Shown here: positions 21,273-43,017 of the stretch, in pieces
How the letters are laid out: each line of letters opens with the position of its first letter
How positions within the stretch are numbered: position 1 is the stretch's first letter
From: Candidatus Parcubacteria bacterium
GTDB lineage: Bacteria > Patescibacteriota > Patescibacteriia > UBA1558 > GWA2-36-10
Direction of reading: 5' to 3'
DNA: 64,000 nucleotides
NCBI GenBank assembly: GCA_018669975.1
Contig: JABHSK010000005.1
Coordinates: 57,123-121,122, forward strand
Made by a program: the position numbers and the translations under genes
The notes under the pieces: generated by a model
Database searches by the model: none
Told to the model about the DNA's origin: nothing
Seen by the model: only the letters and a program-made list of their open reading frames with translations

Positions 21273-21430
21273 CCTTTTGGGCCTCTTAAAAAGATGTTCA
21301 ATAATACACAAGTTTAGTTATTGACTTTTGCTCTAAAATTTGTCATTATAATAGTAAGAATAATCGCCTTCGGGCATTATTCTTTGTACTGATATAATTA
21401 TTAAAAAACTATAGAAAGGGAGGTGATAGC

Positions 21431-21679
21431 GTGTTGGAGGTTAAAAGAAAGGATACAGAGTCTTTTGAAAGTTTGATTCGTAGGTTTACTAAGAAAACTA
21501 TCCAAAGCGGTAAAATTTTACAAGCCAAAAAAATTAGATTTTTTAACAAGAACAAAAGCAAAAGAGAATTGAAAGATAGTGCTTTGCGAAAACAAAAAAT
21601 CGGCGACCGTTTTGAATATATGAAAAAAATCGGCAAACTTGACGAAAGTAAGTTTAAACGTGGTAAAAAAAGAAGATAG
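21431..21679 (+). CDS. rpsU: 30S ribosomal protein S21 (GTG start)
   Basis: MLEVKRKDTESFESLIRRFTKK...RGKKRR; GGGAGGTG SD upstream of the GTG. Confidence 0.8.
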   Translation: MLEVKRKDTESFESLIRRFTKKTIQSGKILQAKKIRFFNKNKSKRELKDSALRKQKIGDRFEYMKKIGKLDESKFKRGKKRR

Positions 21680-21755
21680 TATAATCGTTAGTTTTTGTTT
21701 ACCAATATAATAAATTGGTAAACAGGCTACTAATGAGTATTAATTTCATAAATTC

Positions 21756-22199
21756 ATGTCTCTACAACAGACAATTGATGAGAATTTTAAGAAAGCCTTG
21801 AAGAATAAGGAGGAAATAAAGGTTTCTGTAATGAGGATGCTCAAGGCAGCCATCAAAAATAAATGCATTGAAGACAAGAGGGATAGTCTAGATGATAAAG
21901 ATGTTATGGCCGTTATACAAAAAGAACTCAAAAAACGAAAAGATTCAATAGAGGCTTTTGAAAAAGCAGATCGGCAAGATTTGGCAGATAAAGAGAAAAA
22001 AGAATTAGAGATTTTGGCAGAATATACGCCAGAAATGATGCCTAAAGAAGAAGTGGCAGCTATTGTGGATGAGGTGATAGCGCAAGATAAAGAAGCTAAT
22101 TTTGGACAAATTATGAAACAAGTAATGACCAAGGTGCAAGGCAAGGCCGAAGGGCAGTTGGTACAGAGTTTGGTCAAAGAAAAGTTGAACCACAATTAA
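21756..22199 (+). CDS. GatB/YqeY-domain protein
   Basis: Conserved YqeY N-terminal pattern (ENFKKALKNKEEIKVSVMRMLKAAIKN) and length. Confidence 0.7.
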   Translation: MSLQQTIDENFKKALKNKEEIKVSVMRMLKAAIKNKCIEDKRDSLDDKDVMAVIQKELKKRKDSIEAFEKADRQDLADKEKKELEILAEYTPEMMPKEEVAAIVDEVIAQDKEANFGQIMKQVMTKVQGKAEGQLVQSLVKEKLNHN

Positions 22200-22230
22200 A
22201 AAAAATATTTAAATAGTTAAAAATATCCCC

Positions 22231-23895
22231 ATGCGAATTAATAAAAAAATAACTGTTGTGTTTATTTTATTCTTAGCAGTTATTTTTTTGTTGCCAGACG
22301 TAGCGGCTGCACAGAGTGATATCTACGGTGTTAATCAATTGACTAATGCTAATTTAGGTACCAGAAGTCTCCAGGAGATGGTTGTGTCAGTAGTAAATAT
22401 AGTTCTAGGCTTCCTAGGTATATTAGCCACCTTAGTAATTCTCTATGGTGGTTTTATTTGGATGACCTCTGGCGGCAATTCAGATAAAATTGATAAAGCT
22501 AAACGGACTATTATTAACGGCGTGATTGGCTTGGCAATTATCTTATCATCTTTTGCTATTGCTAGATTCGTTCTCAAAGAGGGTTATGAGGGTATATTCG
22601 GCGGCGGCAGTGGAGGTGGTTCTGGCTATGTTGGTGGTGTTGGTTTGGGAGCTAGTGTTTTAGAGAGTCATTATCCGGCTCGTGGTGCTGTAGATATAGC
22701 AAGAAATACCAATATTTTTGTGACTTTCAAAGAGCCCATGAATGATTCTTTCATTACTAATGTAGGTTGTAATTATGTAGATGTGCCAGCTGGCTACACC
22801 TATTGCGTTGATGATAGCCTCTTTGAATATATAAAAATTTTTATCGATGAGATAAATCCAGTACTAATAGATGGTGATAGGATTATGGTTAAATATAATC
22901 CAGCTAACCCAAGGACATTTGAGTTTAATCCATATGGTACAGATGCTAATAATCATCTAGGGAATCCTAATGGTCACGTGCTTTATAAAGTGGTTTTAGA
23001 TAGCCTAGAAACACAGTCTGGAAACCCAGCCTTTAGTTTTGGATTTTATGATTGGAATTTTACAGTTAGCAATGAATTAGATTTGGTTCCACCAGAGGTG
23101 GTTTCAGTCATACCCGATGGTTCAAATAATCCTTATCCTAGGAATAGTGCAGTACAGATAAATTTTTCTGAGGCAGTCAATCCTATTTATGCTACTGGTG
23201 AACATCCAGGCTTAGGACCGCCATTTGTCAATATTACTATGTCTACCACCACCATTATAAATGGTGAATACACTATTGCTAATCAGTATCGGACAGTAGA
23301 ATTTATAACAGATGAACTTTGTGGGCAGAATTCATGTGGTGGCGATGTTTATTGTTTGCCAGGTAATAATACTATTAATGGCCAGGTAACGGACGTTATT
23401 CAAGATATGGCTGGTAATCAATTAGACGGAGCCTTTGGTAATGGTAATGGTATCGGTGGTGAGGGAGTTGGCGATTATGCTATTTGGAATTTTGACACTA
23501 ATAATACTATTGATTTGACGCCACCTAGGATTACTTATATGGATTCAGACAATTCCAATGCAGGTGGCATGTCATTGTCAGCGCCGATTGAAGTCGGATT
23601 TGATAAGACTTTATTGTTTAACTCAGTTAATGGTAATAGTTTAGGTTTATATAAAAATATATTTGGGGATATCAATTTCTGGTTTACAGCCACAACCACA
23701 AACTTGGTTAATGATACTATTTTGATAAACCATGATTTCTTTGAACCTTTAACCAGTTATGCAGTTACTTCAACCTCAGGTATAAAAGATGGTCTACAGA
23801 ATTGTTGGTATCCATGTAATTGTACTGACAATTTAGGTTCTTGTGATTGTGATACAGGTGGAGCTTGCGCAGGTAATTCTTGCCAAACAAACTAA
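22231..23895 (+). CDS. surface protein: signal peptide + two-helix (TrbC/VirB2-like topology) membrane module + Gly-rich linker + beta-rich extracellular domain; paralog of the N-terminus of the giant protein
   Basis: N-terminal about 115 aa aligns closely with the N-terminus of ORF 23921 (AQSDI.GVN..T...LGTR......V.S..NIVLG.LGI.A...I.YGGF.WMTS.GN.D......K..I...VIGL.IILS..AI.RFVL). Confidence 0.6.
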   Translation: MRINKKITVVFILFLAVIFLLPDVAAAQSDIYGVNQLTNANLGTRSLQEMVVSVVNIVLGFLGILATLVILYGGFIWMTSGGNSDKIDKAKRTIINGVIGLAIILSSFAIARFVLKEGYEGIFGGGSGGGSGYVGGVGLGASVLESHYPARGAVDIARNTNIFVTFKEPMNDSFITNVGCNYVDVPAGYTYCVDDSLFEYIKIFIDEINPVLIDGDRIMVKYNPANPRTFEFNPYGTDANNHLGNPNGHVLYKVVLDSLETQSGNPAFSFGFYDWNFTVSNELDLVPPEVVSVIPDGSNNPYPRNSAVQINFSEAVNPIYATGEHPGLGPPFVNITMSTTTIINGEYTIANQYRTVEFITDELCGQNSCGGDVYCLPGNNTINGQVTDVIQDMAGNQLDGAFGNGNGIGGEGVGDYAIWNFDTNNTIDLTPPRITYMDSDNSNAGGMSLSAPIEVGFDKTLLFNSVNGNSLGLYKNIFGDINFWFTATTTNLVNDTILINHDFFEPLTSYAVTSTSGIKDGLQNCWYPCNCTDNLGSCDCDTGGACAGNSCQTN

Positions 23896-23920
23896 CATAT
23901 AAAAAATAAAATATATAAAA

Positions 23921-26900
23921 ATGAAAAAAGTTTTATCCATACCAATAGTTACTTTGATACTTGGCTATTTGCAAGTAAATAAAGTTTTGGCTCAGTCGGA
24001 CATTTTAGGTGTCAACGGTATGACCGATACAGTTTTGGGTACGAGAGGGATAGAGGATACAGTGGCCTCAATTATAAATATTGTTCTCGGTCTATTGGGA
24101 ATCATTGCTGTAGTTTTGATAATCTATGGCGGGTTTTTATGGATGACTTCTAAAGGAAATACCGATCAAGTTCAACGCGCTAAAATGGTTATTATTAGTG
24201 CGGTTATTGGTTTGGTGATAATCTTGTCTGCCTATGCTATCACTAGGTTTGTTCTTGGTGCTCTGGAGAATGCTGTAGGTCCTGGTGGAGGAACTCCACA
24301 ACAACAAAACCAAAATCCAGGAGGTGCCCTTTGTCCGCCGCCGTTAAATCCAGGTGCAGTAGAGGTTTGCGATCCATTTCCTTCTGCAGCTACTGTGGGT
24401 AGTGCTTTTACAGTGGGTGCTTGGAATATTGGTCCTTGGGATACCTTAGCTACAAGCTTTGTACAATTTAATGACTTGGCAGGTAATACAGCTGTAGCAG
24501 AAATAGCTAGTTGTGGTGCCAATGGATATTATTGGAATTTACTCTATACAGATATTAACACTGGAGATGATTATTATGAGATTAGAGCTCTAGTGCCAGC
24601 TCTACCAGTATCTTTACCAAATTATGATGTTGAGGTACATAATATTAATTTGGCAAATCCTTTTTACACGCCAGCAATGCAATTTGCTATATTAAGTGGG
24701 TCACCTGCACCAAGTATTTTCTGTATTCAACCTTCACATGCTGCGACTAGTACAGCAGTGTCTATCATTGGTCGTGGTCTAGGAGTAGGTGGGCAGGCTT
24801 TGGATGAGATATTTGTAAATGCTTACCCTGGCGGTGTGCACCAACCACAATTTCCAGTTCCCGGCCCGGTTCCTGGTCCAACTATTACAAATTGGGCGGA
24901 TGATCAAATTGATTTTATAATACCAGACCAACAGATCAGTGGTAATGTTACAGTTCAAGTAGATGATGGTGCGGGTAACTCAGATACCAGTAACCCAGTT
25001 TACTTTATAGTTGATTGCACCAATGATGGTGAGTGTGCTTCTGGTTGTTGTCCTGGTTCACCGGGACCAGGTGTTTATGCCTGTTCTGAGGAAGTGGTTT
25101 GTACGGGTATTAGCTCAGCACCACACATTACGGCTATTAATCCAGATAATGGTACTGATGGAAATATAGTTACAGTATTTGGTTATAATTTTTGTGATGA
25201 CGTTGCCTGTGCTCCAGGTACAGTTTGGTTTACAGATGGCGCAAATAACCCTGTGGCCGGTATCTTACCAAGTACTCTCAATGCGCAGTGTGGAGATTTT
25301 TGGACAGACACGGCTATTATAATTGGTGTACCACCAACAGTTGATACTGGACAAGTGACCATGGAAACTGCTGCTGCAGTAGCCAGTGATAACGCTATTA
25401 CTTTTACTGAAAATAACATAGAATATCCTGGTATTTGTGCACTACAAGATGGTGCAGGTAATCCTATTACTACTGGATTTTTTGATGATGGCATACCAGT
25501 ACATGTGCACGGCATTAGATTTAATAATAACGATAGAATTACTTTTGGCGGATTTTTAGGCTATAATCCTTCCTATCTAGGTTTACCAACAGAAGTGCAG
25601 GCTGATGTGCCAAATTCAGTAGGTATAGCTGATGTAGTAGTGACATCTTCCACTGAAGCAACAATTGTAAGTAATCCTTTTCCATTTTCTGCTTTAGCTG
25701 TAACAGGTGGCTTGCCTACCATTTCAGAAATATCACCAACTAGTACTCGTATAGGAAAATATACTACTATCATGGGTGCTAATTTTGGTACCACACCTGG
25801 TGATGTTGAATTTTGGCAATTAGGAGTACATATAGATGATGGGGAGTTTACTTTCCCAGCGCAGTGTGGCAGCCATTATTGGCAGCATGACAGTATAGTA
25901 GTTAAGCCACCAACAGATTTGATACTTAATGGTGGTAACTACGGAGATTTTGATGTGGTAGTTAGAAGAAGTGGCGACAACGCTACTAGCTTACCGCATC
26001 CTGTAGAAATATTAGCAGGACCTCCTGGGCCAGGCATTTGCTTGATGCAACCAGACAATGGTCCAGCTGGTAAGACTATTAATTTTTATGGTGATAATTT
26101 TAATACCGCAGCTGGTGCTGTAGTATTTCATAATAATGAATTTGCTGATTTAACAAATGCAATTTGGGGTAATCAGCAAGTATTGACTGTGCCTGTACCC
26201 AACAATGCAGCCACTGGTCCAGTATTTATCAGAGACTCAGCGGGCATGGATAGTAATGATTTGATGTTTAGTGTTGGTGCCTGTAGTTCTGATACGCAGT
26301 GTCAAAATAATTTGCAGGGTAATATATGTTGTCCAGATACCAATGGAAATTTTTGTGATAATTATTTAGGCTGTAGCTCAATCAATGAATGTACTTATGG
26401 TTGGCGATTTACCACTGAATCATTATTGCAAGTAGTGGGCTGGGGTCCTGTTTGTGATGATTCATGTATCAACGGTACTGTCTGGGTAGATTTTAATACA
26501 GAAATAGTCGCTGCAGATCTTGATTTTAATAATTTTAGTATTTTAGAATGTACTGACTCAACTTGTCAGAATACTAACCCAGGTAATTTTGTAACTGCGG
26601 CTAGTACATTTACTCAGCCAGCACCAGCAGCTGCAGGTGATCCTTGGGTGGTAAGTTTTACACACAACGCTTTTAATCCAAATACCTACTATCTAGTAGA
26701 GGTAAATCCAAATATTCAAAATACAGACGGTGCCATTTTAGGTAATCCGCATTCCTGGAGTTTTGCCACTGGTGCTAATAACTGTGACGTTGATCATATA
26801 AATGTAGCACCGGCTAGTAGGCCTGCTTATATAGGTGATGTTATACCATTTGGTGCACAAGCTTATTCTCCTCCAAGTAGCTGTTATCCGGCTGGTCAGC

Positions 26901-29900
26901 CAATTGCTTGTGACGCAGCTATCAGCTGTAGTTGGAGTGCTTGGACCAACGATGGCGCCTATACTACTCAGATTCCAACAGGAATACCGGAATCAATGGA
27001 TATATCAGCAGATGCTGTTACACTAGTTGGTGGTACCCAGATAGGAGCTGAGGCAGTACAAGGTGCTAATACATTTAATGACTTTGGTGTTTTGGATATT
27101 ACTGTTGGTCCAAATAGTTTATTGGGGCTTAATCGACAGGCATATGGTCCAACCTGTAGTGATTCATGTTTAAATGGTGACGTTTGGATAGAGTTTGATA
27201 GCGAAGTGACCGTCAATGAAGACGCTGCACACTTTAGTATTTTAGAATGTACAGATTCAACTTGTCAGAATACAGTGGGTCCTAATCAAACTAATAGTAC
27301 AACTCAGCCAGTACCAGCAGCCGTAGGTGATCCTTGGCGCGTAGAATTAAATCATAATAATTTTTCACCAAATACTTATTATCTAGTGACCATAGATGGC
27401 AATATTGCCAATAATATTGGTCCTCTTGTAGGTGGTACCTTTACTTGGAGTTTTGGAGCAGGTGATGCTGCCTGTGATGTGGGCAATCTACTGGTGTCTC
27501 CAGCTATTGCTAATGTTAATATTGGGGATACTGTTCATTATTCTGCTCAACCTTATTCTGCGCCAGGTATTTGTTATCCAAGTGGTCAAGCAATTTCTTG
27601 TGACGCAGCCATTGGCTGTAGTTGGAACGCTTGGACAAATGATGGTGCATATACTACTCAGATTCCAATTGCAGTAGACAATATAGATATTTTAGCTAAT
27701 AATCCAACGCCAGCTGTAGGAACTCCAGTAGGTGTAGGAGTGACTCAAGGTGCTACTACTTTCTCTGGTGTAGGTACTTTGAATATAGGTACCGGAGGAG
27801 CGTCAGTGTTCTCCTCCACTGGACATGGTCCAACTTGTAGTGATTCCTGTATTAATGGTTTGGTGCATGCTGACTTTAACGAAGAGCCAGACTTCCTTCC
27901 TTCCACAAGAATTTATCAGTGTGACGATGCTACCTGTACAGCTACTTCTGGACCAAGTTTATTAGTTGGAACAAATACATATCAACTAATGGTTGGTGGT
28001 GACTGGCGAGTTCGACTTTTTCATACTCCTTTTACACCAGGTGTATCTTATCAAGCTTATGTAGATGGTGGCACTTATCATACCTATGCATCAGGTGATG
28101 CTTATCTAGGCAATGCTTTGATGTGGAGTTTTGGCACAGGCGTAAACAGCTGTGATGTTGATCGTGCAGACATTTATCCTCCAGGTCCAGATCCAATTTT
28201 AAGCACTGTAAATTTAGGAGATAATATTAGTTATTCTGTGGAGACCTATTCCGTGCCAGGTATTTGTTATCCAGGTGGTCAACCAATCGTCTGTGATGCA
28301 TCTATTGGTTGTATCTTATTTTGGAATGCAAACAGTCAACCGGGTGGTTTAGTGAATATAACCACTGCGCAAGATACTGATTCAGTTACTTACAATGCAA
28401 CTACCGTCGGTAATAATGATACGGTAAGGATGAGAGCCGTGCAGAATGCAACACAGTTTCTAGATGCCACTGATGTTGATGTTGTTACTGGCGTGCTTCC
28501 AGGTAGTCCAAATATAGTTGACCATGAGCCAGTAGCACTGCCAGTTTGTATTAATGCTGCGCCAACAGTTGTTTTTGATCAGTTGATGGATTCAGCTAGT
28601 ATTAATAGTAATGTTAAAGTATATAGAACTGGAACTCCGGGACCTAATTGTATTAGTCCTGGTAATCCTACTCTTTGTGAGGTTCCAGGTTCATTTACTC
28701 TTGTAGCAGATTCAGCCATACCAGAGACACGGGCCATATTCAATCCCGATACATATTTGGCTACTTCTACAAATCATTATTTATATGTAGGTCCAAACAC
28801 GCAGAGTTTAGATGGTCAGAGTCTTGGTTGGACTACTGACCTTGCGTTTTCTATGCTGGAAGTAACTGGTGATGGAGTTGTGGATGGACTTGCTTGGATG
28901 TTTCCTACTAATCAAACTGTTTGTCAACTTAGTCATGCGATAATCACGCCAACTTATGATTTCTTTCATTGTTCTTTAGATGATTGTGATGAAAATGATG
29001 TTGCACCGGGTGGTAATAATGAGCATAGATATACTGCTGTAGCCTATGGTGTGGATGGTTCACCGCTAAACGTTTCTAATTATTGGTGGACTAACAGTGA
29101 TCCTTCCATATTTACTATAGACTCTCAGACAACTCAACAGATTATGGGTTGGCCAGGATTTGATAATGGGCATGTTACTTTGTCTGTATCAGCCTGGGAC
29201 AATGACCCAGCTATTACAGGTACCGTTGGAGCAGCAGCAGGTATTGAAATTTTCCTTTGTGAAAATCCATGGCCTAGTGCAAACACCGTGCCTTGGGAGC
29301 CAGGCCCACCACCAAATCCTTATCATTATTCAACCCTATATTGTTTAGATGATGGTGATGGTGGATTCCTACCTTACTTAGATGCAGCTGTATCAGCTAC
29401 TAATCCAAATCCAAATGGTGTTTTAAATGCCGGTGAAAGAATATTTATTATCAACCCATCTAGTTCCATGGGAAGTTTGAATTTAGCTCAATATCAGTTT
29501 GGTAGTTTAGCTTATGGAAGAGAGTTGGATATTGATAATAATTTAAGTGAAAATAAATCGTGGTTTGAGAAAATTAGAACTGCTCTTTGGGGAGATGTTA
29601 AAAAAGCAGAGGGACAGGCCAATGCCTTACCAATGTGTGCGCCAGGTAACCCGACAAATCTACAGGTCAGTAGTGTAGATGACACTCAGGTTACCTTGAC
29701 TTGGGGTAACGCTTCAAGTGGTGTTGGACCCAATGGTGCAGTCACAAACTATAATATGTACCGTAGAGAAATTCCAAATGGTAATTATCCAGGCCCTTTA
29801 CAGGGCACTATAAATGTGCCAGGGCAGAGAATATTTACAGATAATACTGTAGTGACAGATACTATTTATGAATATACCGTGACTGCTGAGGCATCAGCTT

Positions 29901-32900
29901 GTCCTGCAGAAACTTTTCCTGTAGTCAGTACGACTGTTACAGCATCTATTTCACAGCCGCATGTAGATATCATAGGTCTTAGGGTGATGGGCAACGATGA
30001 GCACTTGTCTATTACTGATTGGTATAAACAACATGCACCAAATCCAGAAGTACTTGGTGAGATAAAAGAAATAGATGGCTATGAGGCCATGCAAGTTGGT
30101 AATACCACTTATATAGGTGCTTTGAACATGTCAGGACTTATTTATACAAATGTTTATATAATATCCCACAATATAGGTGCTAGTGGAGACACTCGTGATA
30201 TCTATAAGCAATTTATAGAAAACATGAAGTTCAACACTAACATGCCTAGATTGGAAAATGTCTGTAATGCAGATACATCAATTATTTGTTCTAGTGATTT
30301 TGATTGTCCGGTGGGAGATTATTGTACATCTAGAGATTTAAAAATAAAACGTGATTTACAACGCCTAGGTGACTTGATGAATGTTAAAAACATGGTAGAG
30401 GAATATGGTCAATCACATAAGGCTTGTAGTCATAATAGTGCTATTGCTTGTGTAGATGACTCACCTTGTATTTTAGGAGGAGGCACCTGTGTCTCATATT
30501 ATCCATTGCTTAATGCAGGAACCTTTGTGAATGGTATGAGTAATAGTAATTGGCCATCATGGAATACTACTTTACGTACTATTTTGGGAGAGGAATTACC
30601 AGAAGATCCAATTGGTTTATTTAACGGGTGTCCACCAGGTGCTGACCCTGACACATGTTGGGATGAATTAGTTTCACCACCAGAGTTTACTTGTCCAGCT
30701 GAATCATTGATATATTTTTATAATAATGATGTTAATGTTTCGCAAGGTATAGACTATTTCTTGGGAGCCAATTTTGAGTATGATTCTAGTCCAGCTTTAC
30801 ATTTTGATCCTTCGGGGTTTAATCCGTTGACTTTTGGTTGTGATTTATATAATGGACCAGCTAGTATAACTGGTATTTGGCCAGACCCGGCTTGTCCGGT
30901 ACCACAGGATGGTATGCCACATATTTATTCTAGTTTAGATAGCCTGTGTAGTGTGGCTAGTGTTTATTCTCCAGGTGCAGTCACTATCCCTTCTTGTGGA
31001 AATGGCACCTGGGAACCAGATGGTGTTGATGGTGTGCCAAATACACCTGACGATGAAATATGTGAACCTGGTATGCAGAGAAATTTGTGTATAGAAACAG
31101 TAGTTCCGCTAGGAACGGATTGGTGGGATGCAGGAAACCACATAGGTGGTTGTAATCCTGTCGGCACAGAAGATGCCGGTGGTAATCTAATTGAGTGTAC
31201 TTGGTATGAGCCAGATCCTGCTCTAACGGCAGTAGATTGTGGAGGCTATTGTGGTAATAATACTATAGATCCAGTTGAGTCCTGTGATGGTGCAGCTGGT
31301 TTTGATGGACTTTATACTTGCTACGATCCAGATACCATGACTACTAGTACCCCTGTTTGTAATATTAATGTTTGCCAAGCTTTTTGCCCAACCGGAAACT
31401 TAGCATCCCTCTGTGGAGATGGTGCTTGGGATGCTAGCTATGAACAATGTGATGCCAGTGCTGATCCAAGCGGATTGGTAGGCTGGGATTGTGGTGTGGT
31501 GGCTACTTCAACGGTAGCTTGTAATAATTGTGCTATAGAATGTACTATCGGCGGAACTTTATATAATGGTGTATGTGGTAATGATATTATTGAGTGGCCA
31601 GAAGAATGTGAGCCAGGAATACATATTCCTCCAACAGCAGCGACTTCATCGCCGACTTATCAATATTTATGTGATCCTACTTATTGTGTTTATGATGGTG
31701 GTTATTGCGCAGATGGCATTAATCCTGGACCGTATGATTCAGGCGGCAATACTAATGAAGTGGCCATATTGATAGATGGTAGTGCTTTCTACCAACCAGA
31801 AGAATGTGATGATTTAGAATGGGATATACCACAGAGGCATAATTCAGATCAAGATTATGAATATTTATGTAATTCTTGCGTAATTGAAGGTGGCTATTGT
31901 GGTGACGGCAATCGAGATTCTGCAGCTGGTATTTCTCCTAGTCCACCAGAAGAATGTGATGATGGTAATAATTCTGAGGCAGATGTCTGTACTAATGCCT
32001 GTGAGTGGGGCTGTGAAGATGTGGCAATTGGGCCTTTTCCAAGAGCGCCAATTTTGGCTGGCTACATTTCCTCAAAGAATACCGACGATGGTTTATTGTT
32101 TAACACTACTGATGCCACAGTAGAGCTACACGCTGGAGACTCGGCTACGCTACCTCTAGGTAGTTGTCGTATCAGTGGCGATGTAGTAGTTGATGTGACT
32201 GTGCATGGTAATGATTCATATGCAGGTATAGTATTTGTTGTGGACAGGTCAAGTAGTATGAGTGGTGATATAGCTGCTGCTAAAAATGCGATCGGTTCTG
32301 CTATTGTGACAATATTTGACCGTAATCCAACTGCTCAAATTGCTATCGTTGAGTACGGAGATGACGCTTGGACAAGAATTAATTTTACAGGTTTTGAGCA
32401 GGAGAATTTATTAATTGGTAGTTTTAGGAAAACTGGTGCTATAGGAGGAGCAGTTAACCAAATTAATGCCGATAGGCCTAGTACAGACCACTCTATTGGT
32501 TTAGATAGGGCTTATGGTTTATTTAATGCTACTAGCTTTGAGAATAACATAGTTATTTTTATGACAGATGGGAGTCCAACTGGTGGTGTAACTGGGAACT
32601 GTGTTAATGGTGCTAATGTTGGTGATGCCTACGGTCGGACCTTATGTATAGCTGAAAATGATCTTAAATTTTGTAACAATCCCGCAGTAGACACGTGCGT
32701 AGATATGTTTACAGTAGCCTTTACTTCTAATGTCGGTTTGCAAGGTTTTTTAAACGCCGTTTCTTCTTCAGATTGTGTTTATTCTAATTATGGAAGATCA
32801 ACTACAGGGGGTACTTGCGGTAGTAATGGTATTGAATGTCTAAATACTTTAAATCAACGGGAAGAATGTGATGGTGGTCCAGACTGTATATCATCTGCCT

Positions 32901-33265
32901 TGCCCAACGCTTGTCAATGGTCAGGAGATAGGGTTAATGACAATAGGGCGTATTCTGGTAGTAGTCAAGCGGAGTTGGCTCAGATGTATCAGGATATATC
33001 AGGATCCATCCCTATTAATAATGTTTTACTTGCCTTGGATAATTCGGGTGCTACTACCACATTAAATGATATTGGAGTTACTTTTGATAATTCTTACCGT
33101 ATTCATACCAATGGAATTGCAACTTGCAGTGACGGCTCCACTGTTGATAATGAGCTAAATATTAGTGCTAATTTTACAGGTAATATAAATGCTTATCTAG
33201 AATTGAGCAATCCAGTTTATGAATTCTGCCATTGGTATAACTGTCCCTGGTGTTTTAATAACTAA
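23921..33265 (+). CDS. giant (3114 aa) multidomain cell-surface protein: TrbC/VirB2-like N-terminal membrane module; IPT/TIG-like domains; 3 tandem repeats of about 230 aa; FN3; Cys-rich CGDG...ECDDGN repeats (Myxococcus-type, DUF4215-like); vWA domain with MIDAS DRSSS
   Basis: Single uninterrupted 9345-nt ORF; motifs PHITAINPDNGTDGNIVTVFGYNF (IPT), PTNLQVSSVDDTQVTLTW (FN3), CGDGNRDSAAG...EECDDGNNSEADVCTNAC, FVVDRSSSMSGDIAAAKNAIG (vWA). Confidence 0.75.
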   Translation: MKKVLSIPIVTLILGYLQVNKVLAQSDILGVNGMTDTVLGTRGIEDTVASIINIVLGLLGIIAVVLIIYGGFLWMTSKGNTDQVQRAKMVIISAVIGLVIILSAYAITRFVLGALENAVGPGGGTPQQQNQNPGGALCPPPLNPGAVEVCDPFPSAATVGSAFTVGAWNIGPWDTLATSFVQFNDLAGNTAVAEIASCGANGYYWNLLYTDINTGDDYYEIRALVPALPVSLPNYDVEVHNINLANPFYTPAMQFAILSGSPAPSIFCIQPSHAATSTAVSIIGRGLGVGGQALDEIFVNAYPGGVHQPQFPVPGPVPGPTITNWADDQIDFIIPDQQISGNVTVQVDDGAGNSDTSNPVYFIVDCTNDGECASGCCPGSPGPGVYACSEEVVCTGISSAPHITAINPDNGTDGNIVTVFGYNFCDDVACAPGTVWFTDGANNPVAGILPSTLNAQCGDFWTDTAIIIGVPPTVDTGQVTMETAAAVASDNAITFTENNIEYPGICALQDGAGNPITTGFFDDGIPVHVHGIRFNNNDRITFGGFLGYNPSYLGLPTEVQADVPNSVGIADVVVTSSTEATIVSNPFPFSALAVTGGLPTISEISPTSTRIGKYTTIMGANFGTTPGDVEFWQLGVHIDDGEFTFPAQCGSHYWQHDSIVVKPPTDLILNGGNYGDFDVVVRRSGDNATSLPHPVEILAGPPGPGICLMQPDNGPAGKTINFYGDNFNTAAGAVVFHNNEFADLTNAIWGNQQVLTVPVPNNAATGPVFIRDSAGMDSNDLMFSVGACSSDTQCQNNLQGNICCPDTNGNFCDNYLGCSSINECTYGWRFTTESLLQVVGWGPVCDDSCINGTVWVDFNTEIVAADLDFNNFSILECTDSTCQNTNPGNFVTAASTFTQPAPAAAGDPWVVSFTHNAFNPNTYYLVEVNPNIQNTDGAILGNPHSWSFATGANNCDVDHINVAPASRPAYIGDVIPFGAQAYSPPSSCYPAGQPIACDAAISCSWSAWTNDGAYTTQIPTGIPESMDISADAVTLVGGTQIGAEAVQGANTFNDFGVLDITVGPNSLLGLNRQAYGPTCSDSCLNGDVWIEFDSEVTVNEDAAHFSILECTDSTCQNTVGPNQTNSTTQPVPAAVGDPWRVELNHNNFSPNTYYLVTIDGNIANNIGPLVGGTFTWSFGAGDAACDVGNLLVSPAIANVNIGDTVHYSAQPYSAPGICYPSGQAISCDAAIGCSWNAWTNDGAYTTQIPIAVDNIDILANNPTPAVGTPVGVGVTQGATTFSGVGTLNIGTGGASVFSSTGHGPTCSDSCINGLVHADFNEEPDFLPSTRIYQCDDATCTATSGPSLLVGTNTYQLMVGGDWRVRLFHTPFTPGVSYQAYVDGGTYHTYASGDAYLGNALMWSFGTGVNSCDVDRADIYPPGPDPILSTVNLGDNISYSVETYSVPGICYPGGQPIVCDASIGCILFWNANSQPGGLVNITTAQDTDSVTYNATTVGNNDTVRMRAVQNATQFLDATDVDVVTGVLPGSPNIVDHEPVALPVCINAAPTVVFDQLMDSASINSNVKVYRTGTPGPNCISPGNPTLCEVPGSFTLVADSAIPETRAIFNPDTYLATSTNHYLYVGPNTQSLDGQSLGWTTDLAFSMLEVTGDGVVDGLAWMFPTNQTVCQLSHAIITPTYDFFHCSLDDCDENDVAPGGNNEHRYTAVAYGVDGSPLNVSNYWWTNSDPSIFTIDSQTTQQIMGWPGFDNGHVTLSVSAWDNDPAITGTVGAAAGIEIFLCENPWPSANTVPWEPGPPPNPYHYSTLYCLDDGDGGFLPYLDAAVSATNPNPNGVLNAGERIFIINPSSSMGSLNLAQYQFGSLAYGRELDIDNNLSENKSWFEKIRTALWGDVKKAEGQANALPMCAPGNPTNLQVSSVDDTQVTLTWGNASSGVGPNGAVTNYNMYRREIPNGNYPGPLQGTINVPGQRIFTDNTVVTDTIYEYTVTAEASACPAETFPVVSTTVTASISQPHVDIIGLRVMGNDEHLSITDWYKQHAPNPEVLGEIKEIDGYEAMQVGNTTYIGALNMSGLIYTNVYIISHNIGASGDTRDIYKQFIENMKFNTNMPRLENVCNADTSIICSSDFDCPVGDYCTSRDLKIKRDLQRLGDLMNVKNMVEEYGQSHKACSHNSAIACVDDSPCILGGGTCVSYYPLLNAGTFVNGMSNSNWPSWNTTLRTILGEELPEDPIGLFNGCPPGADPDTCWDELVSPPEFTCPAESLIYFYNNDVNVSQGIDYFLGANFEYDSSPALHFDPSGFNPLTFGCDLYNGPASITGIWPDPACPVPQDGMPHIYSSLDSLCSVASVYSPGAVTIPSCGNGTWEPDGVDGVPNTPDDEICEPGMQRNLCIETVVPLGTDWWDAGNHIGGCNPVGTEDAGGNLIECTWYEPDPALTAVDCGGYCGNNTIDPVESCDGAAGFDGLYTCYDPDTMTTSTPVCNINVCQAFCPTGNLASLCGDGAWDASYEQCDASADPSGLVGWDCGVVATSTVACNNCAIECTIGGTLYNGVCGNDIIEWPEECEPGIHIPPTAATSSPTYQYLCDPTYCVYDGGYCADGINPGPYDSGGNTNEVAILIDGSAFYQPEECDDLEWDIPQRHNSDQDYEYLCNSCVIEGGYCGDGNRDSAAGISPSPPEECDDGNNSEADVCTNACEWGCEDVAIGPFPRAPILAGYISSKNTDDGLLFNTTDATVELHAGDSATLPLGSCRISGDVVVDVTVHGNDSYAGIVFVVDRSSSMSGDIAAAKNAIGSAIVTIFDRNPTAQIAIVEYGDDAWTRINFTGFEQENLLIGSFRKTGAIGGAVNQINADRPSTDHSIGLDRAYGLFNATSFENNIVIFMTDGSPTGGVTGNCVNGANVGDAYGRTLCIAENDLKFCNNPAVDTCVDMFTVAFTSNVGLQGFLNAVSSSDCVYSNYGRSTTGGTCGSNGIECLNTLNQREECDGGPDCISSALPNACQWSGDRVNDNRAYSGSSQAELAQMYQDISGSIPINNVLLALDNSGATTTLNDIGVTFDNSYRIHTNGIATCSDGSTVDNELNISANFTGNINAYLELSNPVYEFCHWYNCPWCFNN
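26440..28520 (+). repeat. three tandem in-frame repeats of about 690-700 bp (about 230 aa) inside the giant gene
   Basis: Recurring GPTCSDSC(I/L)NG..W.(D/E)F...ILECTDSTCQNT...GDPW...YYLV...CDV...YS.P..CYP.GQ.I.CDAAI.CSW.AWTNDGAYTTQIP, with stretches of near-identical DNA. Confidence 0.7.
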
Positions 33266-33288
33266 AACTTATAAATATATAATTTAGT

Positions 33289-34083
33289 ATGGAAAATAAT
33301 AAAAAACTTATCTTGATAATTGTTGTAGTTGTACTTGTATTGGCGGTAGTTGGTTTTATTTTGATGCGTAGTATGTCAAAGTCAGATGACAATGTAAATA
33401 ATCAAAATACCAATAGCATTTTATCCACCAACGACAATATACAGCCAGGAGACAATGGAAATGGAGGTGGTTTAAGTACTAGTTATAAATATCGGGACGC
33501 TGAATTTATACATTTGTTAGATGGTTTAGAAGAGGAGGACCTATTGGCCCTTAGGGACACAAAAGGTTATTTGATGTCTAACAAAATGTATCAAATATGT
33601 TTGCGATCTGCTGATGCTGATGAGCAAGAGGAGTGTCTAGAAAGATTAAGGGTTTATCAAATAAATCAAATAGGCAAACCAGAAATGTGTGACCAATTAG
33701 ACACCAGTAGAGATAGTTGCCTGATGAACATTGCTGTAGGTGATAATGATACAAATATATGTAAAGACATTAGCGATCAGGATTTACAGAAGGAATGTAT
33801 AAATTTAATTATTCATTCTTACGCTTTACAACAAGATGATGCTTCTATATGTTATGAGGCATTTGATGAAGAGAATAAGTTAAATTGCATGAAGGCAGTG
33901 GCTCACGAGCACCAGGATTTAGATTATTGTGATACAGATATCATGGTTAATAATGATTTGGGTGACACCTGCCGAAGTATAGTTTTGATAAATCATGTAT
34001 CAGCTAATAACGACAATAGTATTTGTGAGCAGATTCCTTTGCAGGATTATAAGGATATGTGCTTTACTGAGTTTGCATTATAA
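33289..34083 (+). CDS. membrane-anchored Cys-rich repeat protein
   Basis: N-terminal TM helix (LILIIVVVVLVLAVVGFILM); 12 Cys in a repeating C-x-D/N spacing pattern. Confidence 0.45.
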   Translation: MENNKKLILIIVVVVLVLAVVGFILMRSMSKSDDNVNNQNTNSILSTNDNIQPGDNGNGGGLSTSYKYRDAEFIHLLDGLEEEDLLALRDTKGYLMSNKMYQICLRSADADEQEECLERLRVYQINQIGKPEMCDQLDTSRDSCLMNIAVGDNDTNICKDISDQDLQKECINLIIHSYALQQDDASICYEAFDEENKLNCMKAVAHEHQDLDYCDTDIMVNNDLGDTCRSIVLINHVSANNDNSICEQIPLQDYKDMCFTEFAL

Positions 34084-34099
34084 ATTAAATTAGATATTT

Positions 34100-34984
34100 A
34101 TGTTTGATGATTTGAAACAAGATGACCAACAAACAGGGACTCAGGCTCCTCAACCAGCTCCGGCAACTCCACAACCTCAACAACCGGTTCAGCCAGCTGC
34201 TCCGACGCAACCTGCTCCAGTGGCACCAGTTCCTCAACCAGCTCCGGCAACTCCACAACCTCAACAACCGGTTCAGCCAGTTACTCCGACAGGATCAGCA
34301 GCTGATATGTTTGCAGATATAGATCCAGTAGCTGACAAGCCTAGTGCTATTCAATCTGGTAAAATGAAACCAGTTTCTAGTACGGCTGTGCCACCGCCAG
34401 CTGTTCCGACTGCGGCCGACATGATGGTTCGTGATAACGGAGGAGGGGGACTAAAAAAAGTCTTGATTATTGCAGTGGCTTTGATTTTAGTTTTTATAGT
34501 AGTAGCTGGAGTATTTTATTTTATTGGCAATAAAGTAGAGACTGATACAGATGGTGATCAAGCAGCTGTTACAAATACCAATGATAATATTGTTAGCAAC
34601 ACGAATGATGATGTGCCACCCACACAACCTGTCGAGGACATAAATAATGACTTGGGTGATGATGATTTTGATGGTTTAAATAATGGGGAAGAAAGGAAGT
34701 TGGGCACTGATCCGTTAGATCCAGACACTGACAATGATGGTTTATATGACAGCGAGGAAGTCAGGACATATCAGACCAATCCTTTACTTGATGACACTGA
34801 TAATGATGGTCTGTCAGATCATGCTGAGGTTATAATATATACTACCAATCCAAATAATCCAGATACTGACGATGATGGCTTCAATGATGGTACAGAAGTG
34901 GAAAATGGTTATAATCCAAATGGTTCTGGAAAATTGGAAGATTTAATACCACCAGTAGGAAATTTAAATACTAATCAAAATTAA
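34100..34984 (+). CDS. single-pass membrane protein: Pro/Gln-rich N-terminal low-complexity region, TM helix, extracellular thrombospondin-type-3-like Ca-binding repeats (DxDxDG)
   Basis: DPDTDNDGLYDSEE, DDTDNDGLSDHAEV, NPDTDDDGFNDGTEVENG; TM helix KKVLIIAVALILVFIVVAGVFYFIG. Confidence 0.55.
   Translation: MFDDLKQDDQQTGTQAPQPAPATPQPQQPVQPAAPTQPAPVAPVPQPAPATPQPQQPVQPVTPTGSAADMFADIDPVADKPSAIQSGKMKPVSSTAVPPPAVPTAADMMVRDNGGGGLKKVLIIAVALILVFIVVAGVFYFIGNKVETDTDGDQAAVTNTNDNIVSNTNDDVPPTQPVEDINNDLGDDDFDGLNNGEERKLGTDPLDPDTDNDGLYDSEEVRTYQTNPLLDDTDNDGLSDHAEVIIYTTNPNNPDTDDDGFNDGTEVENGYNPNGSGKLEDLIPPVGNLNTNQN
34148..34290 (+). repeat. 84-bp (28-aa) direct tandem repeat x about 1.7 inside ORF 34100
   Basis: cctcaaccagctccggcaactccacaacctcaacaaccggttcagccag occurs twice, 84 nt apart. 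Confidence 0.8.
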
Positions 34985-34989
34985 TTGTT

Positions 34990-36114
34990 ATGTTTGACGA
35001 CAATAAAGTAGGAAATAAAATAGATGACCCTGCTGCTGATATTTCTGAAGAGCAACAAGAAGTTGCTCAGGTTTTAGGTGAAAATAAATCAGAGGTTGCT
35101 AATGGTAAACCAAATCAACAGACAGTGGTGATTAAGGATGAGGATATTCACTCAATGCCAGTAAAATTTTTACCTAATAAGCCACAACAAGCAGCAAATA
35201 AAGCGAGTGTTAGTAGCGGCAAAGGCGGCGGCGGTAAAAAAATAGTATGGGTGTTTGTTGGCTTGATTGTATTTTTGGGAGTTATTATCGGTGGCGGTTT
35301 ATGGTTTATTAATAGTTATAACAAGCCACCAGTAGATCAGGGTAATAACGTGAATCAAGGTGATGTTGTCAGTGACAATACAAATACAGAAGATAATACT
35401 AATACTAACACCAATACTAATGATAATGTAAATACTAATACTAACACCAATACTAATGATAATGTAAATACTAATACTAACACCAATACTAATGATAATG
35501 TGTCACCTCCACCTCCACCACCAACTTCAGCGCTTGACGCAGATAATGATGGACTAACACAATTAGAAGAAGGTATTTATTTTACAAATTCAAATCGTGA
35601 TGATACCGATAGAGATAACTATAAAGATGGTGTAGAGGTGAGTAATCTTTATAATCCACTGGTGCCAGGAGAGGGAGAGTTCTTGGTAGATTCTGGTTTA
35701 GTGACCAAGTATGCAGATGCTTCAGGTTATAATTTATTAAGGCCAAAGAATTGGGTCGCAGAGGCATCTGAGGAACATACAGTAATTTTCATACCAGATG
35801 CGGGGACAGGGGAGCTTATTAGTCTATTGGCCATGCCTAATGAAAATAATATTTCATTGGATACTATTTTTTCTGAAATACCAGATTTGTTGCAGCCACG
35901 CGCAGACTATGTAAATTTTTCTTTAGCTGATCAACCAGCCTTGAAGACCATTGATGGTTTTGGGGTGCTTATGGTGACGGAGGCTTATATTTATATTATT
36001 GATTATGACTTGGGTGGAGTTAGTCAGCCAAACTTTAGTACTACTTTTGGCATGATGCTTAGAAGTTTCACCTTAGGTGAAAAAGATGATGATATGTTAA
36101 ATGATGAACAATAA
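34990..36114 (+). CDS. single-pass membrane protein with an Asn/Thr tandem-repeat region, a polyproline stretch, TSP3-like Ca-binding motifs and a C-terminal globular domain
   Basis: TM helix KKIVWVFVGLIVFLGVIIGGGLWFI; (NTNTNTNDNVNT)x3; SPPPPPPTSALDADNDGLTQLEEG; DDTDRDNYKDGVEV. Confidence 0.5.
   Translation: MFDDNKVGNKIDDPAADISEEQQEVAQVLGENKSEVANGKPNQQTVVIKDEDIHSMPVKFLPNKPQQAANKASVSSGKGGGGKKIVWVFVGLIVFLGVIIGGGLWFINSYNKPPVDQGNNVNQGDVVSDNTNTEDNTNTNTNTNDNVNTNTNTNTNDNVNTNTNTNTNDNVSPPPPPPTSALDADNDGLTQLEEGIYFTNSNRDDTDRDNYKDGVEVSNLYNPLVPGEGEFLVDSGLVTKYADASGYNLLRPKNWVAEASEEHTVIFIPDAGTGELISLLAMPNENNISLDTIFSEIPDLLQPRADYVNFSLADQPALKTIDGFGVLMVTEAYIYIIDYDLGGVSQPNFSTTFGMMLRSFTLGEKDDDMLNDEQ
35395..35505 (+). 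repeat. 36-bp tandem repeat x3 (Asn/Thr tract) inside ORF 34990
   Basis: aatactaatgataatgtaaatactaatactaacacc repeated. Confidence 0.8.
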
Positions 36115-36529
36115 AATAATAAATATAAATAAAAGAGGTTTTAGTGCAGATTTTTCTTGGTTGCCAGATATAGAAAAGATATTTAGTAGTAGTTTTAAAA
36201 AGGATTTTAAAAAAAGTAGATCTATCTCTATAGCTTTAGTTGGCGCAGAAGAGATAAAGCAATTGAATCAAGTTTATCGTCGCAAAAATAAGATTACAGA
36301 TGTACTGTCATTCAATATGGATAGTGATCAGATACTAGGTGAGGTGATTATATGTTTAGAGCAGGCCAAAGCACAGGCTAAGGTCAAACAAAAAACACTT
36401 AAATCAGAATTGCAATTACTGACGATCCACGGAATATTACATTTACTTGGTTATGATCATGAACGTGGTGAAAAATATGCCGCCCAACAAGAGCTTGCCC
36501 AAGAGAAGATTTTAAATTTACTGAATTAA
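36101..36529 (+). CDS. ybeY: rRNA maturation endoribonuclease YbeY
   Basis: Zinc-binding motif HGILHLLGYDHE. Confidence 0.85.
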   Translation: MMNNKIININKRGFSADFSWLPDIEKIFSSSFKKDFKKSRSISIALVGAEEIKQLNQVYRRKNKITDVLSFNMDSDQILGEVIICLEQAKAQAKVKQKTLKSELQLLTIHGILHLLGYDHERGEKYAAQQELAQEKILNLLN

Positions 36530-36532
36530 CTT

Positions 36533-36874
36533 ATGAGTAGTAGACTTTTTCGTAGTTTCCGACATGCCTTTCGGGGTTTAAGGACTGCACTGAAGACAGA
36601 GAAGAACTTCAGAATACACGTAGCCATTACTATATTAGTAATTATATTGGCTTGGTATAAGGATATTGGCCGAATTTCATGGGTAGTCTTACTCTTGGTG
36701 ATGGCCTTGGTGATGGCCTTGGAAATATTTAATTCAGCCATAGAACGCTTAGTAGACATGTTGGCACCAAAGACACATAGTTTTGCCAAAGAGATTAAGG
36801 ACTTACTAGCAGCCATGGTTTTGATAGTATCTTTATTCGCTGTAGCTATAGGTTTGATAATCTTTCTGCGGTAA
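36533..36874 (+). CDS. dgkA: diacylglycerol kinase / undecaprenol kinase family (DgkA)
   Basis: About 113 aa with 3 TM helices; conserved RSFRHAFRGL...E(I)FNSAIERLVD pattern. Confidence 0.75.
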   Translation: MSSRLFRSFRHAFRGLRTALKTEKNFRIHVAITILVIILAWYKDIGRISWVVLLLVMALVMALEIFNSAIERLVDMLAPKTHSFAKEIKDLLAAMVLIVSLFAVAIGLIIFLR

Positions 36875-36949
36875 TTTTAAAAATATTTGGCAAGAATCAA
36901 TAATTTAGTTATAATTAATAATCATAATACCCTAAAATAGTTTTAAAGA

Positions 36950-42451: not shown

Positions 42452-42456
42452 ATTAT

Positions 42457-43017
42457 ATGAAGTGGTTTAAATTTTTTCTAATCAGCAGTTTATTTTTACC
42501 TATTACCTGTCAGGCAATAGGTGTTTCAGTGGAGCCAGCAGAGCTAGATATTTTATATCCTAGCCAGGAAAAATATAGTTTTACAGTAACTAACATATCA
42601 GCTGAGCCTATAGTAGTATCAACATATGTAGATGCTTTTCAGGACAATGTTTCTTTGCAACCAAATGAGATTAAATTATTACCTAAGGAAGTGACAGAGG
42701 TGGTAGTCAAGGCAGATTTTATTGGCACGCCAGCGGGTGTAAAAAATACTTACATTTCTATTATCAGTAAAGCCATAGATAAGCGTAGCTTTAATGCTGC
42801 TTCTGGTATTAAATTGCCATTGTCAGTTAATATAACTGAATCTACTTGGCGTTGGTCAGGTGAAGCAGTTTTTGTGGTAGTTTTTCTGAGTTTAATGGTT
42901 TTAATAATATTAGTTCAGTTGATATTTTTATCTTTTCAAGCTAAAAAGAAAAAACGTCATTGGCGAGGAACGAATTTCCTTTTACATAAGAAAAAATTTC
43001 GATTATTCAAACGATGA
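42457..43017 (+). CDS. secreted beta-sandwich-like protein with a C-terminal TM anchor and polybasic tail (partner of ORF 40685)
   Basis: Signal peptide MKWFKFFLISSLFLPITCQA; C-terminal TM VVVFLSLMVLIILVQLIFLSF then KKKKRHWRG. Confidence 0.45.
   Translation: MKWFKFFLISSLFLPITCQAIGVSVEPAELDILYPSQEKYSFTVTNISAEPIVVSTYVDAFQDNVSLQPNEIKLLPKEVTEVVVKADFIGTPAGVKNTYISIISKAIDKRSFNAASGIKLPLSVNITESTWRWSGEAVFVVVFLSLMVLIILVQLIFLSFQAKKKKRHWRGTNFLLHKKKFRLFKR

Follow-up and report, generated by a model that had tools for sequence, protein, structure and literature searches.

Putative modular VirB2-type pilins with large ectodomains in a conserved chromosomal cassette of Patescibacteria

A large part of bacterial diversity belongs to the Patescibacteria, all of whose cultivated members live attached to host cells. 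VirB2-like pilins are already known from them: a survey of 3,035 Patescibacterial genomes, which used PF18895, PF04956 and other profiles, recorded such pilins in 1,948 VirB4-positive assemblies and arrays of 2–11 pilin genes in 383 assemblies, and reported "no adhesins such as PrgB" (PMC12102498). That survey counted matches to PF18895 without discussing protein length or fused domains (PMC12102498). In Southlakia epibionticum, the one species in which this has been tested, a six-gene pilin array lies inside the type IV secretion system (T4SS) cluster and is essential (PMC10633639, PMC12102498, PMC12857230). Here, we analyze a stretch of 64,000 nt (hereinafter the window) from the metagenome-assembled genome of a Candidatus Parcubacteria bacterium, in which a locus at positions 22231–36114 comprises five genes, A to E (Table 1). 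The products of the first two are best read as modular VirB2-type pilins that display adhesive ectodomains.

Two further systems frame this comparison. Multiplied TrwL/TrwJ variants are known from Bartonella, with the suggestion that paralogous pilins may broaden the host range, and a homologue of the VirB5 protein has not been reported for the common monoderm-type Patescibacterial T4SS (PMC12857230, PMC12102498). The modular type IV pilins of Streptococcus sanguinis combine a pilin module with a von Willebrand A (vWA) domain bearing a metal ion-dependent adhesion site (MIDAS) in PilB and with a lectin in PilC (PMC8179133, PMC9934059).

The N-terminal pilin module of A and B

An earlier note, made from the DNA sequence alone, had described five open reading frames (ORFs), all of which are present on the + strand at the coordinates given: they fill 22231–36114 with spacings of 5–31 bp, and the last of them overlaps ybeY by 14 bp. 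It had further proposed that A and B share homologous N-termini of about 115 aa, each with a signal peptide, a helix ending in YGGF(I/L)WMTS, a loop and a second helix, and that these are of the TrbC/VirB2 type rather than of the type IV pilin type. The homology is evident, as the two N-termini are 49.6% identical over 127 aa (E 6.8e-33), and all of the proposed elements were found. Both proteins begin with a signal-peptide-like helix ending in A-Q, followed by about 20 polar residues, a hydrophobic helix that ends in YGGF(I/L)WMTS in both, a short basic loop, and a second hydrophobic helix. The helices emerge from hydropathy (aa 46–80 and 92–117 of A; aa 43–79 and 83–116 of B) and from AlphaFold2 models, which predict a confident hairpin in each: in B, helices at 44–75 and 81–119 are modeled with a pLDDT above 90, and in A, the model has helices at 47–78 and 84–123, then a disordered linker rich in Gly, and after it three beta-sandwich domains (mean pLDDT 81, pTM 0.72).

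Profile searches place this hairpin among the T4SS pilins. PF18895 (T4SS_pilin) matches A with 35.7 bits and B with 35.4 bits against a gathering score of 26.6, covering profile positions 2–70/71. The TrbC profile PF04956, to which the earlier note had looked, falls just below its gathering score of 27.9 in A (25.7 bits, E 1.3e-5, profile 7–96/98) and is weak in B (17.5 bits); the NCBIfam model for the Mbov_0395 pilin-like conjugal transfer protein likewise recovers A and B at E ~1e-8, below its cut-off. The signature of type IV pilins (PF07963 N_methyl/GFxxxE) is absent from A and B in the Pfam scan, and both display an A-Q type I signal peptidase site and two helices, in contrast to the single helix of type IV pilins. 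These features support the assignment of the N-terminus of A and B to a conjugative-type (TrbC/VirB2-like) pilin module, as predicted from their sequences, and not to the type IV pilins.

The closest relatives of the module are stand-alone pilins. With the first 124 residues of B as the query, 585 proteins were matched, and 118 of the 120 best are no longer than 175 aa, almost all of them with PF18895. The 43 stand-alone pilins (~125 aa) that we aligned to the B module as a comparison set show 41–60% identity to it and are alignable end to end; they terminate about 10 residues past helix 2, where the Gly-rich linker begins in A and B. The invariant residues of the stand-alone pilins are retained (G60, G71, M75, T76, G79, A87 and G97 in B numbering), and when an 80% consensus is derived for each of three sets on its own (73 A modules, 73 B modules, the 43 stand-alone pilins), the results are essentially identical. 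This consensus comprises the A-Q site, GLG..D.R, LGfLG, Y.GF.WMT..G...K..KAK and IGL.IILS..AI..F. Conversely, an hmmsearch with the stand-alone pilin profile against the ORFs of the window recovers only A and B, with E-values of 1e-42 to 1e-46 (A, 2.6e-42). What sets the two apart is their size: stand-alone members of PF18895 consist of the module only, at ~110–150 aa, as against 554 aa in A and 3114 aa in B. A profile of 45 pilin modules matched nothing among the sequences in the PDB.

Conservation, synteny and evolution of the cassette

The architecture is by no means confined to this genome. In a species-level scan with one genome per species, at least 558 genomes encode a relative of A; the best 80 of these loci were analyzed in detail. 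The A family comprises at least 291 clusters of ~510–640 aa with the same PF18895+Big_5 architecture, whose sources are labeled Komeili-, Falkow-, Uhr-, Nomura- or Parcubacteria, or which are named merely "Ig-like domain-containing protein". Directly 3′ of A, 71 of the 80 loci display a second ORF with a pilin module, usually of 1400 to >3400 aa, with many of these sizes being minimum values as the ORF runs past the 10-kb flank. Upstream, yqeY is found in 65 of the 80, and D, E, ybeY, dagK and ftsA come after the giant wherever the locus extends far enough. Thus, the conserved order reads LepB-HisS-S21-YqeY, A-B-(C)-D-E, YbeY-DAGK-FtsA-FtsZ. Syntenic orthologues of B range from 1632 to 3318 aa and all carry the pilin module, with E ~1e-40 in the five giants that we examined in detail. 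This pattern is best explained by vertical inheritance of the cassette on the chromosomes of Patescibacteria, most of them of the class ABY1. As a separate observation, many of the cassette genomes, among them those of L017, L020, L021 and L026, are titled "uncultured Gammaproteobacteria bacterium"; these titles appear to be wrong or placeholders.

The variants of the cassette concern mainly the giant. In two independent assemblies of one relative, L012 (GCA_002896335.2) and L013 (from ENA), the place of the giant is taken by a bare pilin of 142 aa with 61% identity to the B module, directly followed by rpsL-rpsG-fusA (L012:5857-7855, L013:1142-3140), D and E being missing there. In four other loci an extra pilin of 123–165 aa lies between A and the giant (L074:11884-12273, L080:7071-7442, L082:11893-12264, and L084:8753-9250, the last titled Candidatus Uhrbacteria); hence, the cassette can be a three-pilin array. 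Finally, in L042, L061 and L068 an A orthologue is directly followed by D and E with no giant between them. The notion that D and E depend on the giant ectodomain, raised by the joint absence of both in L012/L013, was accordingly rejected, as these three loci keep D and E without a giant.

Module and ectodomain evolve at different rates. Among relatives of A, the modules are 47–68% identical as against 38–61% for the ectodomains, and among those of B the modules show 43–71%, while the ectodomains retain ~30–34% in the closer relatives and align only patchily in distant ones, with the number of repeats and the vWA end varying. Across 80 loci (L016–L095), the module similarity of A and B averages 0.535 within the same genome and 0.40 between different genomes, with the highest same-genome values being 0.90 (L029) and 0.81 (L038). 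This likeness of A and B within a genome suggests co-evolution, a shared partner, or occasional gene conversion. In a neighbor-joining tree of the modules, those of A and of B form no clean clades, and the ~110 columns hold too little signal to date the fusion.

The module is by no means confined to the cassette. Its profile, run against 1.84 billion representative proteins, recovered 71,462 clusters at E<=1e-3. By length, the best 147 new clusters fall into 59 under 200 aa, 65 of 200–1000 aa and 23 of at least 1000 aa, and in 21 of the 150 representative clusters that scored best, the protein has one module only, at its N-terminus, and a length of 1546–4158 aa. Some of the short database "pilins" come from ~1-kb contigs and may be truncated N-termini of giants. 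The closest stand-alone pilins are found in conserved arrays of about 10 PF18895 genes with products of 121–377 aa, some of them extended (L014:5134-13353 from Magasanikbacteria and L015:5885-13466); between the pilin genes, these arrays also encode an NTP-transferase and an SBP_bac_1 solute-binding protein. A distinct form was noticed in many database proteins, among them P0246, P0248, P0241, P0243, P0261, P0299 and P0354, which have 2 to ~15 tandem PF18895 hairpins in one polypeptide; P0246 has a separate signal-peptidase-like site, A-H-A-Q, in front of its second module. This site suggests that such proteins might be pilin polyproteins or multi-hairpin membrane proteins.

Ectodomains, partner genes and chromosomal setting

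Table 1. Genes and domains of the locus, with positions in the window
Feature	Position	Strand	Basis or description
Gene A: putative modular VirB2-like pilin, 554 aa	22231..23895	+	Pilin module, Gly-rich linker, three Ig-like domains, Cys-rich tail
A, pilin module, aa 1-123	22231..22599	+	Signal peptide (A-A-A-Q), hairpin, YGGFIWMTS, loop GGNSDKIDKAK
A, Ig-like region, aa 140-530: three beta-sandwich (Big_5) domains	22648..23820	+	Big_5 48.8 bits, AlphaFold2
Gene B: putative giant modular VirB2-like pilin, 3114 aa	23921..33265	+	ORF, PF18895, syntenic orthologues
B, pilin module, aa 1-119	23921..24277	+	Signal peptide (V-L-A-Q), hairpin, YGGFLWMTS, loop KGNTDQVQRAK
B, IPT/TIG-type Ig-like repeats, aa 257-855	24689..26485	+	PF01833, 41 bits against a gathering score of 20.9
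B, three tandem ~230-aa repeats, aa 842-1535	26444..28525	+	Starts at 842, 1076 and 1303; conserved Cys and a Big_5-like domain in each
B, Cys-rich region, aa 2340-2720	30938..32080	+	CG(D/N)G...EEC(D/E) motifs, 8-10 Cys per 100 aa
B, von Willebrand A domain with MIDAS, aa 2770-2960	32228..32800	+	PF13519, PF00092
Gene C: 264 aa, N-terminally anchored, optional in the cassette	33289..34083	+	At least 5 short Cys-pair repeats
Gene D: 294-aa bitopic protein with bacterial TSP3 Ca-binding repeats	34100..34984	+	PF18884, transmembrane segment
Gene E: 374-aa bitopic protein	34990..36114	+	Transmembrane segment, one TSP3-like stretch, conserved C-terminal domain

The regions that follow the module are made up of domains typical of adhesins, as had been suspected for this locus, and the organism is indeed a Patescibacterium. 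In a Foldseek search of the PDB, the ectodomain of A matches best the S-layer proteins SbsC and Sap and the BIg domains of L,D-transpeptidases (Ldt), with TM-scores of ~0.17. In B, the Ig-like repeats show internal likeness (aa 257–436 to 697–855; aa 401–595 to 599–789), and the three ~230-aa repeats are 33–52% identical to one another, with E-values down to 5e-64 and a Big_5 match of 24.3 bits in the first. The vWA domain exceeds the gathering scores of both PF13519 (39.8 bits against 27) and PF00092 (31.4 against 23.8), and its MIDAS looks complete, with D2775-R-S-S-S followed by the T of "PSTDHS" and the D of "FMTDGS".

Thus, the IPT/TIG-type domains, the three repeats and the vWA domain with its MIDAS stand as originally described, in contrast to two other modules named in the earlier note. 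The FN3 match reaches 22.1 bits, below its gathering score of 25, and the proposed Myxococcus-type Cys repeats are a resemblance in motif only: CGDG...EECDDGN occurs at aa 2498–2690 in a motif scan. The Cys-rich region of aa 2340–2720 matches no Pfam family at E<=0.1, and B as a whole matches no NCBIfam Cys-repeat model at E<=0.01; the Myxococcus cysteine-rich repeat itself we take to be PF13948/TIGR02232. In total, B contains 117 Cys. The other segments of B gave only weak matches to Big_13, Big_5 and fn3 in the Pfam scan at E<=0.1. An LPXTG-type sorting signal and a C-terminal hydrophobic segment are absent from both A and B, which end in ...CAGNSCQTN and ...NCPWCFNN, respectively.

The three downstream genes code for smaller membrane proteins. 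As the earlier note had it, C is a Cys-rich anchored protein, with an N-terminal transmembrane segment and 12 Cys; an orthologue was found in L007, L016, L018 and L021 only. D and E had both been taken for single-pass proteins with thrombospondin type 3 (TSP3) repeats. This holds for D, which matches PF18884 (TSP3_bac) in three stretches with 68.3 bits against a gathering score of 25, and in part for E, which matches no Pfam family, TSP3 included, and shares one TSP3-like stretch with D (52% over 52 aa, E 8.6e-10). D is predicted to have a cytoplasmic P/Q-rich N-terminus that starts with MFDD, a transmembrane segment at about aa 118–147, and TSP3 repeats on the extracellular side. In E, a predicted cytoplasmic N-terminus is followed by a transmembrane segment at about aa 84–108, an N/T-rich linker, the TSP3-like stretch and a conserved C-terminal domain, over which orthologues are 30–36% identical and which has no match in the PDB; sequence searches of the PDB with C and E gave nothing meaningful. 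We also observed that the D orthologues of L007, L008, L010 and L011 all begin with MFDD or MFDE and have a second common motif, DDMF.D[IV]DP (here at 34100–34130), and that the E orthologues of the same four loci have [IV]H.MP.KFL in the predicted cytoplasmic N-terminal part (here at 34990–35200).

In GenBank, A is a "hypothetical protein" (MBT6691235.1) and B a "VWA domain-containing protein" (MBT6691236.1), with MBT6691238.1 being a further protein of the same locus from the "Candidatus Parcubacteria bacterium" assembly. The identical A protein is present on 13 contigs from several samples, and the same uninterrupted 3114-aa product of B on four independent assemblies. On its 5′ side, the locus is preceded in the window by genes for a UvrD-like helicase, PheST, GyrB, NusG, L11, L1, PepA, Pth, Der, a LytR-CpsA-Psr (LCP) enzyme, LepB, HisS, S21 and YqeY, and on its 3′ side it is followed by those for YbeY, DAGK, FtsA, FtsZ, NrdR, RF2, a split ComEC, PurA and EF-G; overall, the window is a housekeeping region on the chromosome of a Patescibacterium. 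A promoter and terminator scan of 21200–37000 gave counts not above shuffled expectation and no intergenic terminators; it is compatible with one long co-directional transcription unit and says little beyond this. Matches to Rfam families at the gathering threshold and tRNA genes are absent from the 64 kb, despite its wealth of ribosomal and translation genes.

Two other observations pertain to the 3′ part of the window. ComEC seems to be split into two overlapping ORFs, one with the Competence domain (46607–47956) and one with the metallo-beta-lactamase domain (47949–48764). At 40685–43017, a secreted protein of 588 aa, which combines a prenyltransferase/squalene-hopene-cyclase-like alpha-alpha toroid with DUF4430, precedes a 186-aa protein that begins with a signal peptide and is anchored by a transmembrane segment at its C-terminus; this pair may be another surface module.

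Readings of the hairpin and comparison with known systems

Guided by the observed domain architecture, module membership, conservation and synteny, we propose that the hairpin behaves as a true pilin module and not as a passive anchor. We favor reading A and B as modular pilins because their N-termini keep the features of pilins, because the module is better conserved than the ectodomain, because A and B appear to co-evolve, and because a bare form occurs at the same position. The higher conservation of the module counts for a pilin role, as the reverse pattern would be expected of a passive anchor, and the bare pilin of L012/L013 together with the extra short pilins of L074, L080, L082 and L084 argues that the module is autonomous. 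Also in favor are the recurrence of a single N-terminal module on other very large proteins, the survey that recorded VirB2-like pilins but no adhesins such as PrgB (PMC12102498), the essential pilin array of S. epibionticum, and the precedent of PilB for a vWA domain with MIDAS grafted onto a pilin module (PMC8179133). Moreover, two cassette genomes of the class ABY1, Komeilibacteria RIFOXYD1_FULL_37_29 (L022) and RIFCSPHIGHO2_01_FULL_52_14 (L031), are listed as VirB4-positive (PMC12102498 Table S1).

Under this reading, A and B would be exported by Sec and cut by signal peptidase I after the conserved A-Q. The hairpin would then insert with its basic K/R-rich loop in the cytoplasm and both of its ends outside, a topology suggested by the sequence and by what is known of VirB2/TraA; with both ends outside, the linker and the ectodomain would also come to lie outside the cell. 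From the Gly-rich linker onward, A would thus expose its three Ig-like domains and B a stretch of ~3000 aa with the Ig-like repeats, the disulfide-rich region and the vWA domain with its MIDAS. As subunits at the tip, in nucleation or in low copy number, the two proteins would become part of the structure that is assembled from the stand-alone PF18895 pilins, whose genes lie elsewhere in these genomes, and would fill the VirB5/adhesin role that is seemingly missing from monoderm T4SS-like systems. Their ectodomains might contact a partner cell or surface in a metal-dependent manner, with D and E as putative bitopic Ca-binding partners. That A and B join the stand-alone pilin assembly as tip, nucleating or low-copy adhesive subunits is an interpretation that we hold tentatively, at somewhat less than even confidence. 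The broader form of the idea, in which the PF18895 hairpin is a general assembly handle in Patescibacteria, the A–B pair nucleates a VirB2-type filament or forms its adhesive tip, and a single polypeptide, in sizes up to >4000 aa, unites the roles of pilin and tip adhesin/VirB5, we regard as rather unlikely. In more general terms, the A–B pair may be an undescribed surface or host-contact part of the Patescibacterial pilin system, and a host-attachment apparatus, which the earlier note had read in the locus, is a candidate function.

Several observations weigh against a place in a T4SS-dependent filament. VirB4, VirB6, VirD4 and a type IV pilus ATPase are absent from the 64-kb window in Pfam scans of 37 annotated ORFs, the only near-matches being the split ComEC (46607–48764) and FtsA, with a weak PilM_2 side match; nor did the profile search find any pilin module in the window besides those of A and B. 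The cassette lies among housekeeping genes, flanked by YqeY and YbeY, outside any T4SS cluster, and there is no VirB4 within 10 kb of the stand-alone pilin arrays of L014 and L015. In the literature surveyed, no VirB2-type filament has been visualized in any Patescibacterium, and a review speaks only of a "potential" one (PMC12857230). Fold searches with the hairpin matched thousands of unrelated structures and gave no specific link to solved conjugative pilins. The ectodomain of A is ~50–60% conserved among close relatives, which is unusual for a host-specific adhesin. Moreover, an appendage of 3000 aa on a tightly packed helical pilus subunit would be sterically demanding and fits only a tip or low-copy position.

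Much of this could also be accommodated if the hairpin simply stayed in the cytoplasmic membrane as an anchor and A and B, with D and E, formed a surface coat or fibrils independent of a T4SS, be it S-layer-like, a wall-spanning scaffold or a general adhesive fuzz, in which A and B may pair through their hairpins. Such a structure would sit well with the synteny far from T4SS genes and near those for the LytR-CpsA-Psr enzyme, signal peptidase I and ftsA/ftsZ, with the conservation of A in the manner of a structural protein, with the PF18895 arrays of ABY1 relatives, which are likewise not beside VirB4, and with the absence of a C-terminal sorting signal, which would leave the hairpin as the sole anchor. 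It would also suit the S-layer and cell-wall-enzyme Ig domains that top the structural matches of A, although at their low TM-scores these mostly reflect generic tandem Ig domains. If it were a plain anchor, however, the hairpin should not have kept the motifs typical of pilins, in the loop and on the extracellular side, at a consensus of >=80% across deep divergence, and it should not be better conserved than its ectodomain; the replacement of the giant by a bare pilin in one lineage likewise speaks against it. We consider this a possible but doubtful explanation.

Less probable still, and in our estimate distinctly unlikely, is a function in an envelope or division complex, for example as a Ca-dependent scaffold of the wall or septum, with adhesin-like domains that would be directed at wall polymers of the cell itself and not at a host. 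This rests mainly on synteny: the cassette holds its site directly upstream of ybeY-dagK-ftsA-ftsZ and downstream of the LCP gene even where A is only ~30–36% identical. The conserved motifs in the predicted cytoplasmic parts of D (MFDD...) and E ([IV]H.MP.KFL) suggest intracellular partners, and the Ig domains of A resemble those of L,D-transpeptidases. Yet reduced genomes commonly show synteny with housekeeping genes, which alone is no proof of function; a giant ectodomain that ranges from 0 to >3400 aa, and a giant that is missing altogether in L042, L061 and L068, are unlike a core division factor; and the combination of a vWA domain with MIDAS and arrays of Ig domains is typical of the binding of foreign ligands. 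A mis-assembly, or a gene call that reads through from a pilin gene into a downstream adhesin gene, to which the short "pilins" on ~1-kb contigs as possible truncated giants might lend some color, is ruled out by the unbroken product in four independent assemblies and in the GenBank record and by the same arrangement of uninterrupted ORFs in 71 of the 80 species-level loci, with the Gly-rich linker in frame after helix 2.

Should the broader reading of the hairpin as an assembly handle hold, A and B would represent the first natural example of modular conjugative-type pilins and would supply the T4SS-like apparatus with its "missing adhesin" and its determinant of host recognition throughout ABY1 and neighboring groups. 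The published survey having found no adhesin for this T4SS-like system, the pair is a concrete candidate for how Patescibacteria touch their partner cells. Were the hairpin only an anchor, the locus would still mark, by its synteny and throughout the class, a major surface structure of uncultivated ABY1 bacteria.

Regarding novelty, the Patescibacterial VirB2-like pilins and giant Ig/vWA adhesins are each already known, and the domains of A and B have been tagged publicly (PF18895+PF13205, "Ig-like domain-containing protein", "VWA domain-containing protein"). Accordingly, the claim of the earlier note that the architecture is uncharacterized stands insofar as a literature search of a limited collection found no paper describing a VirB2-type pilin module fused to large ectodomains, and gives way insofar as its domains are annotated in databases and the cassette recurs in at least 558 species-level genomes. 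What appears to be new is that pilin and ectodomain are fused in a pair of genes which, along with two TSP3 partners, keeps a fixed place on the chromosome in hundreds of species.

With the described Patescibacterial VirB2-like pilins and their arrays, A and B share PF18895, the signal peptide, hairpin and basic loop, the phylum, and the arrangement of two or three tandem pilin-module genes. They differ in that the former are described as small and often near virB4, whereas A and B carry about 430 and 3000 extra residues and have no T4SS gene within 22–28 kb. The classical VirB2/TraA pilus likewise consists of a hairpin pilin with a leader peptide, but its adhesion function lies on the separate VirB5 tip protein, while in A and B adhesin and pilin would be one polypeptide; a natural VirB2/TraA with a large fused domain is not described in the literature on classical conjugative pili that we surveyed. 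The tip adhesins of sortase pili, such as RrgA and SpaC, and the RTX adhesins LapA and SiiE combine long Ig-like arrays with a ligand-binding vWA/MIDAS end and Ca-binding accessory repeats, and are anchored via LPXTG and sortase or via retention in a type I secretion system. A and B resemble them in their Ig and vWA/MIDAS domains but have no LPXTG, their putative anchor being the N-terminal pilin hairpin.

The closest functional analogue of the design is PilB of Streptococcus sanguinis, by analogy and not by membership. PilB and PilC share with A and B the organization of a filament-docking pilin module followed by a C-terminal adhesive module, and both sets come from monoderms. B is about 5–6 times the size of PilB by a rough estimate. 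The modules themselves belong to unrelated superfamilies, as PilB and PilC have a class III signal peptide and a single helix, in contrast to the type I signal peptide and VirB2-like hairpin of A and B. Hence, if our reading is correct, the principle of the modular pilin, documented for type IV pili, would extend to the unrelated superfamily of conjugative pilins.

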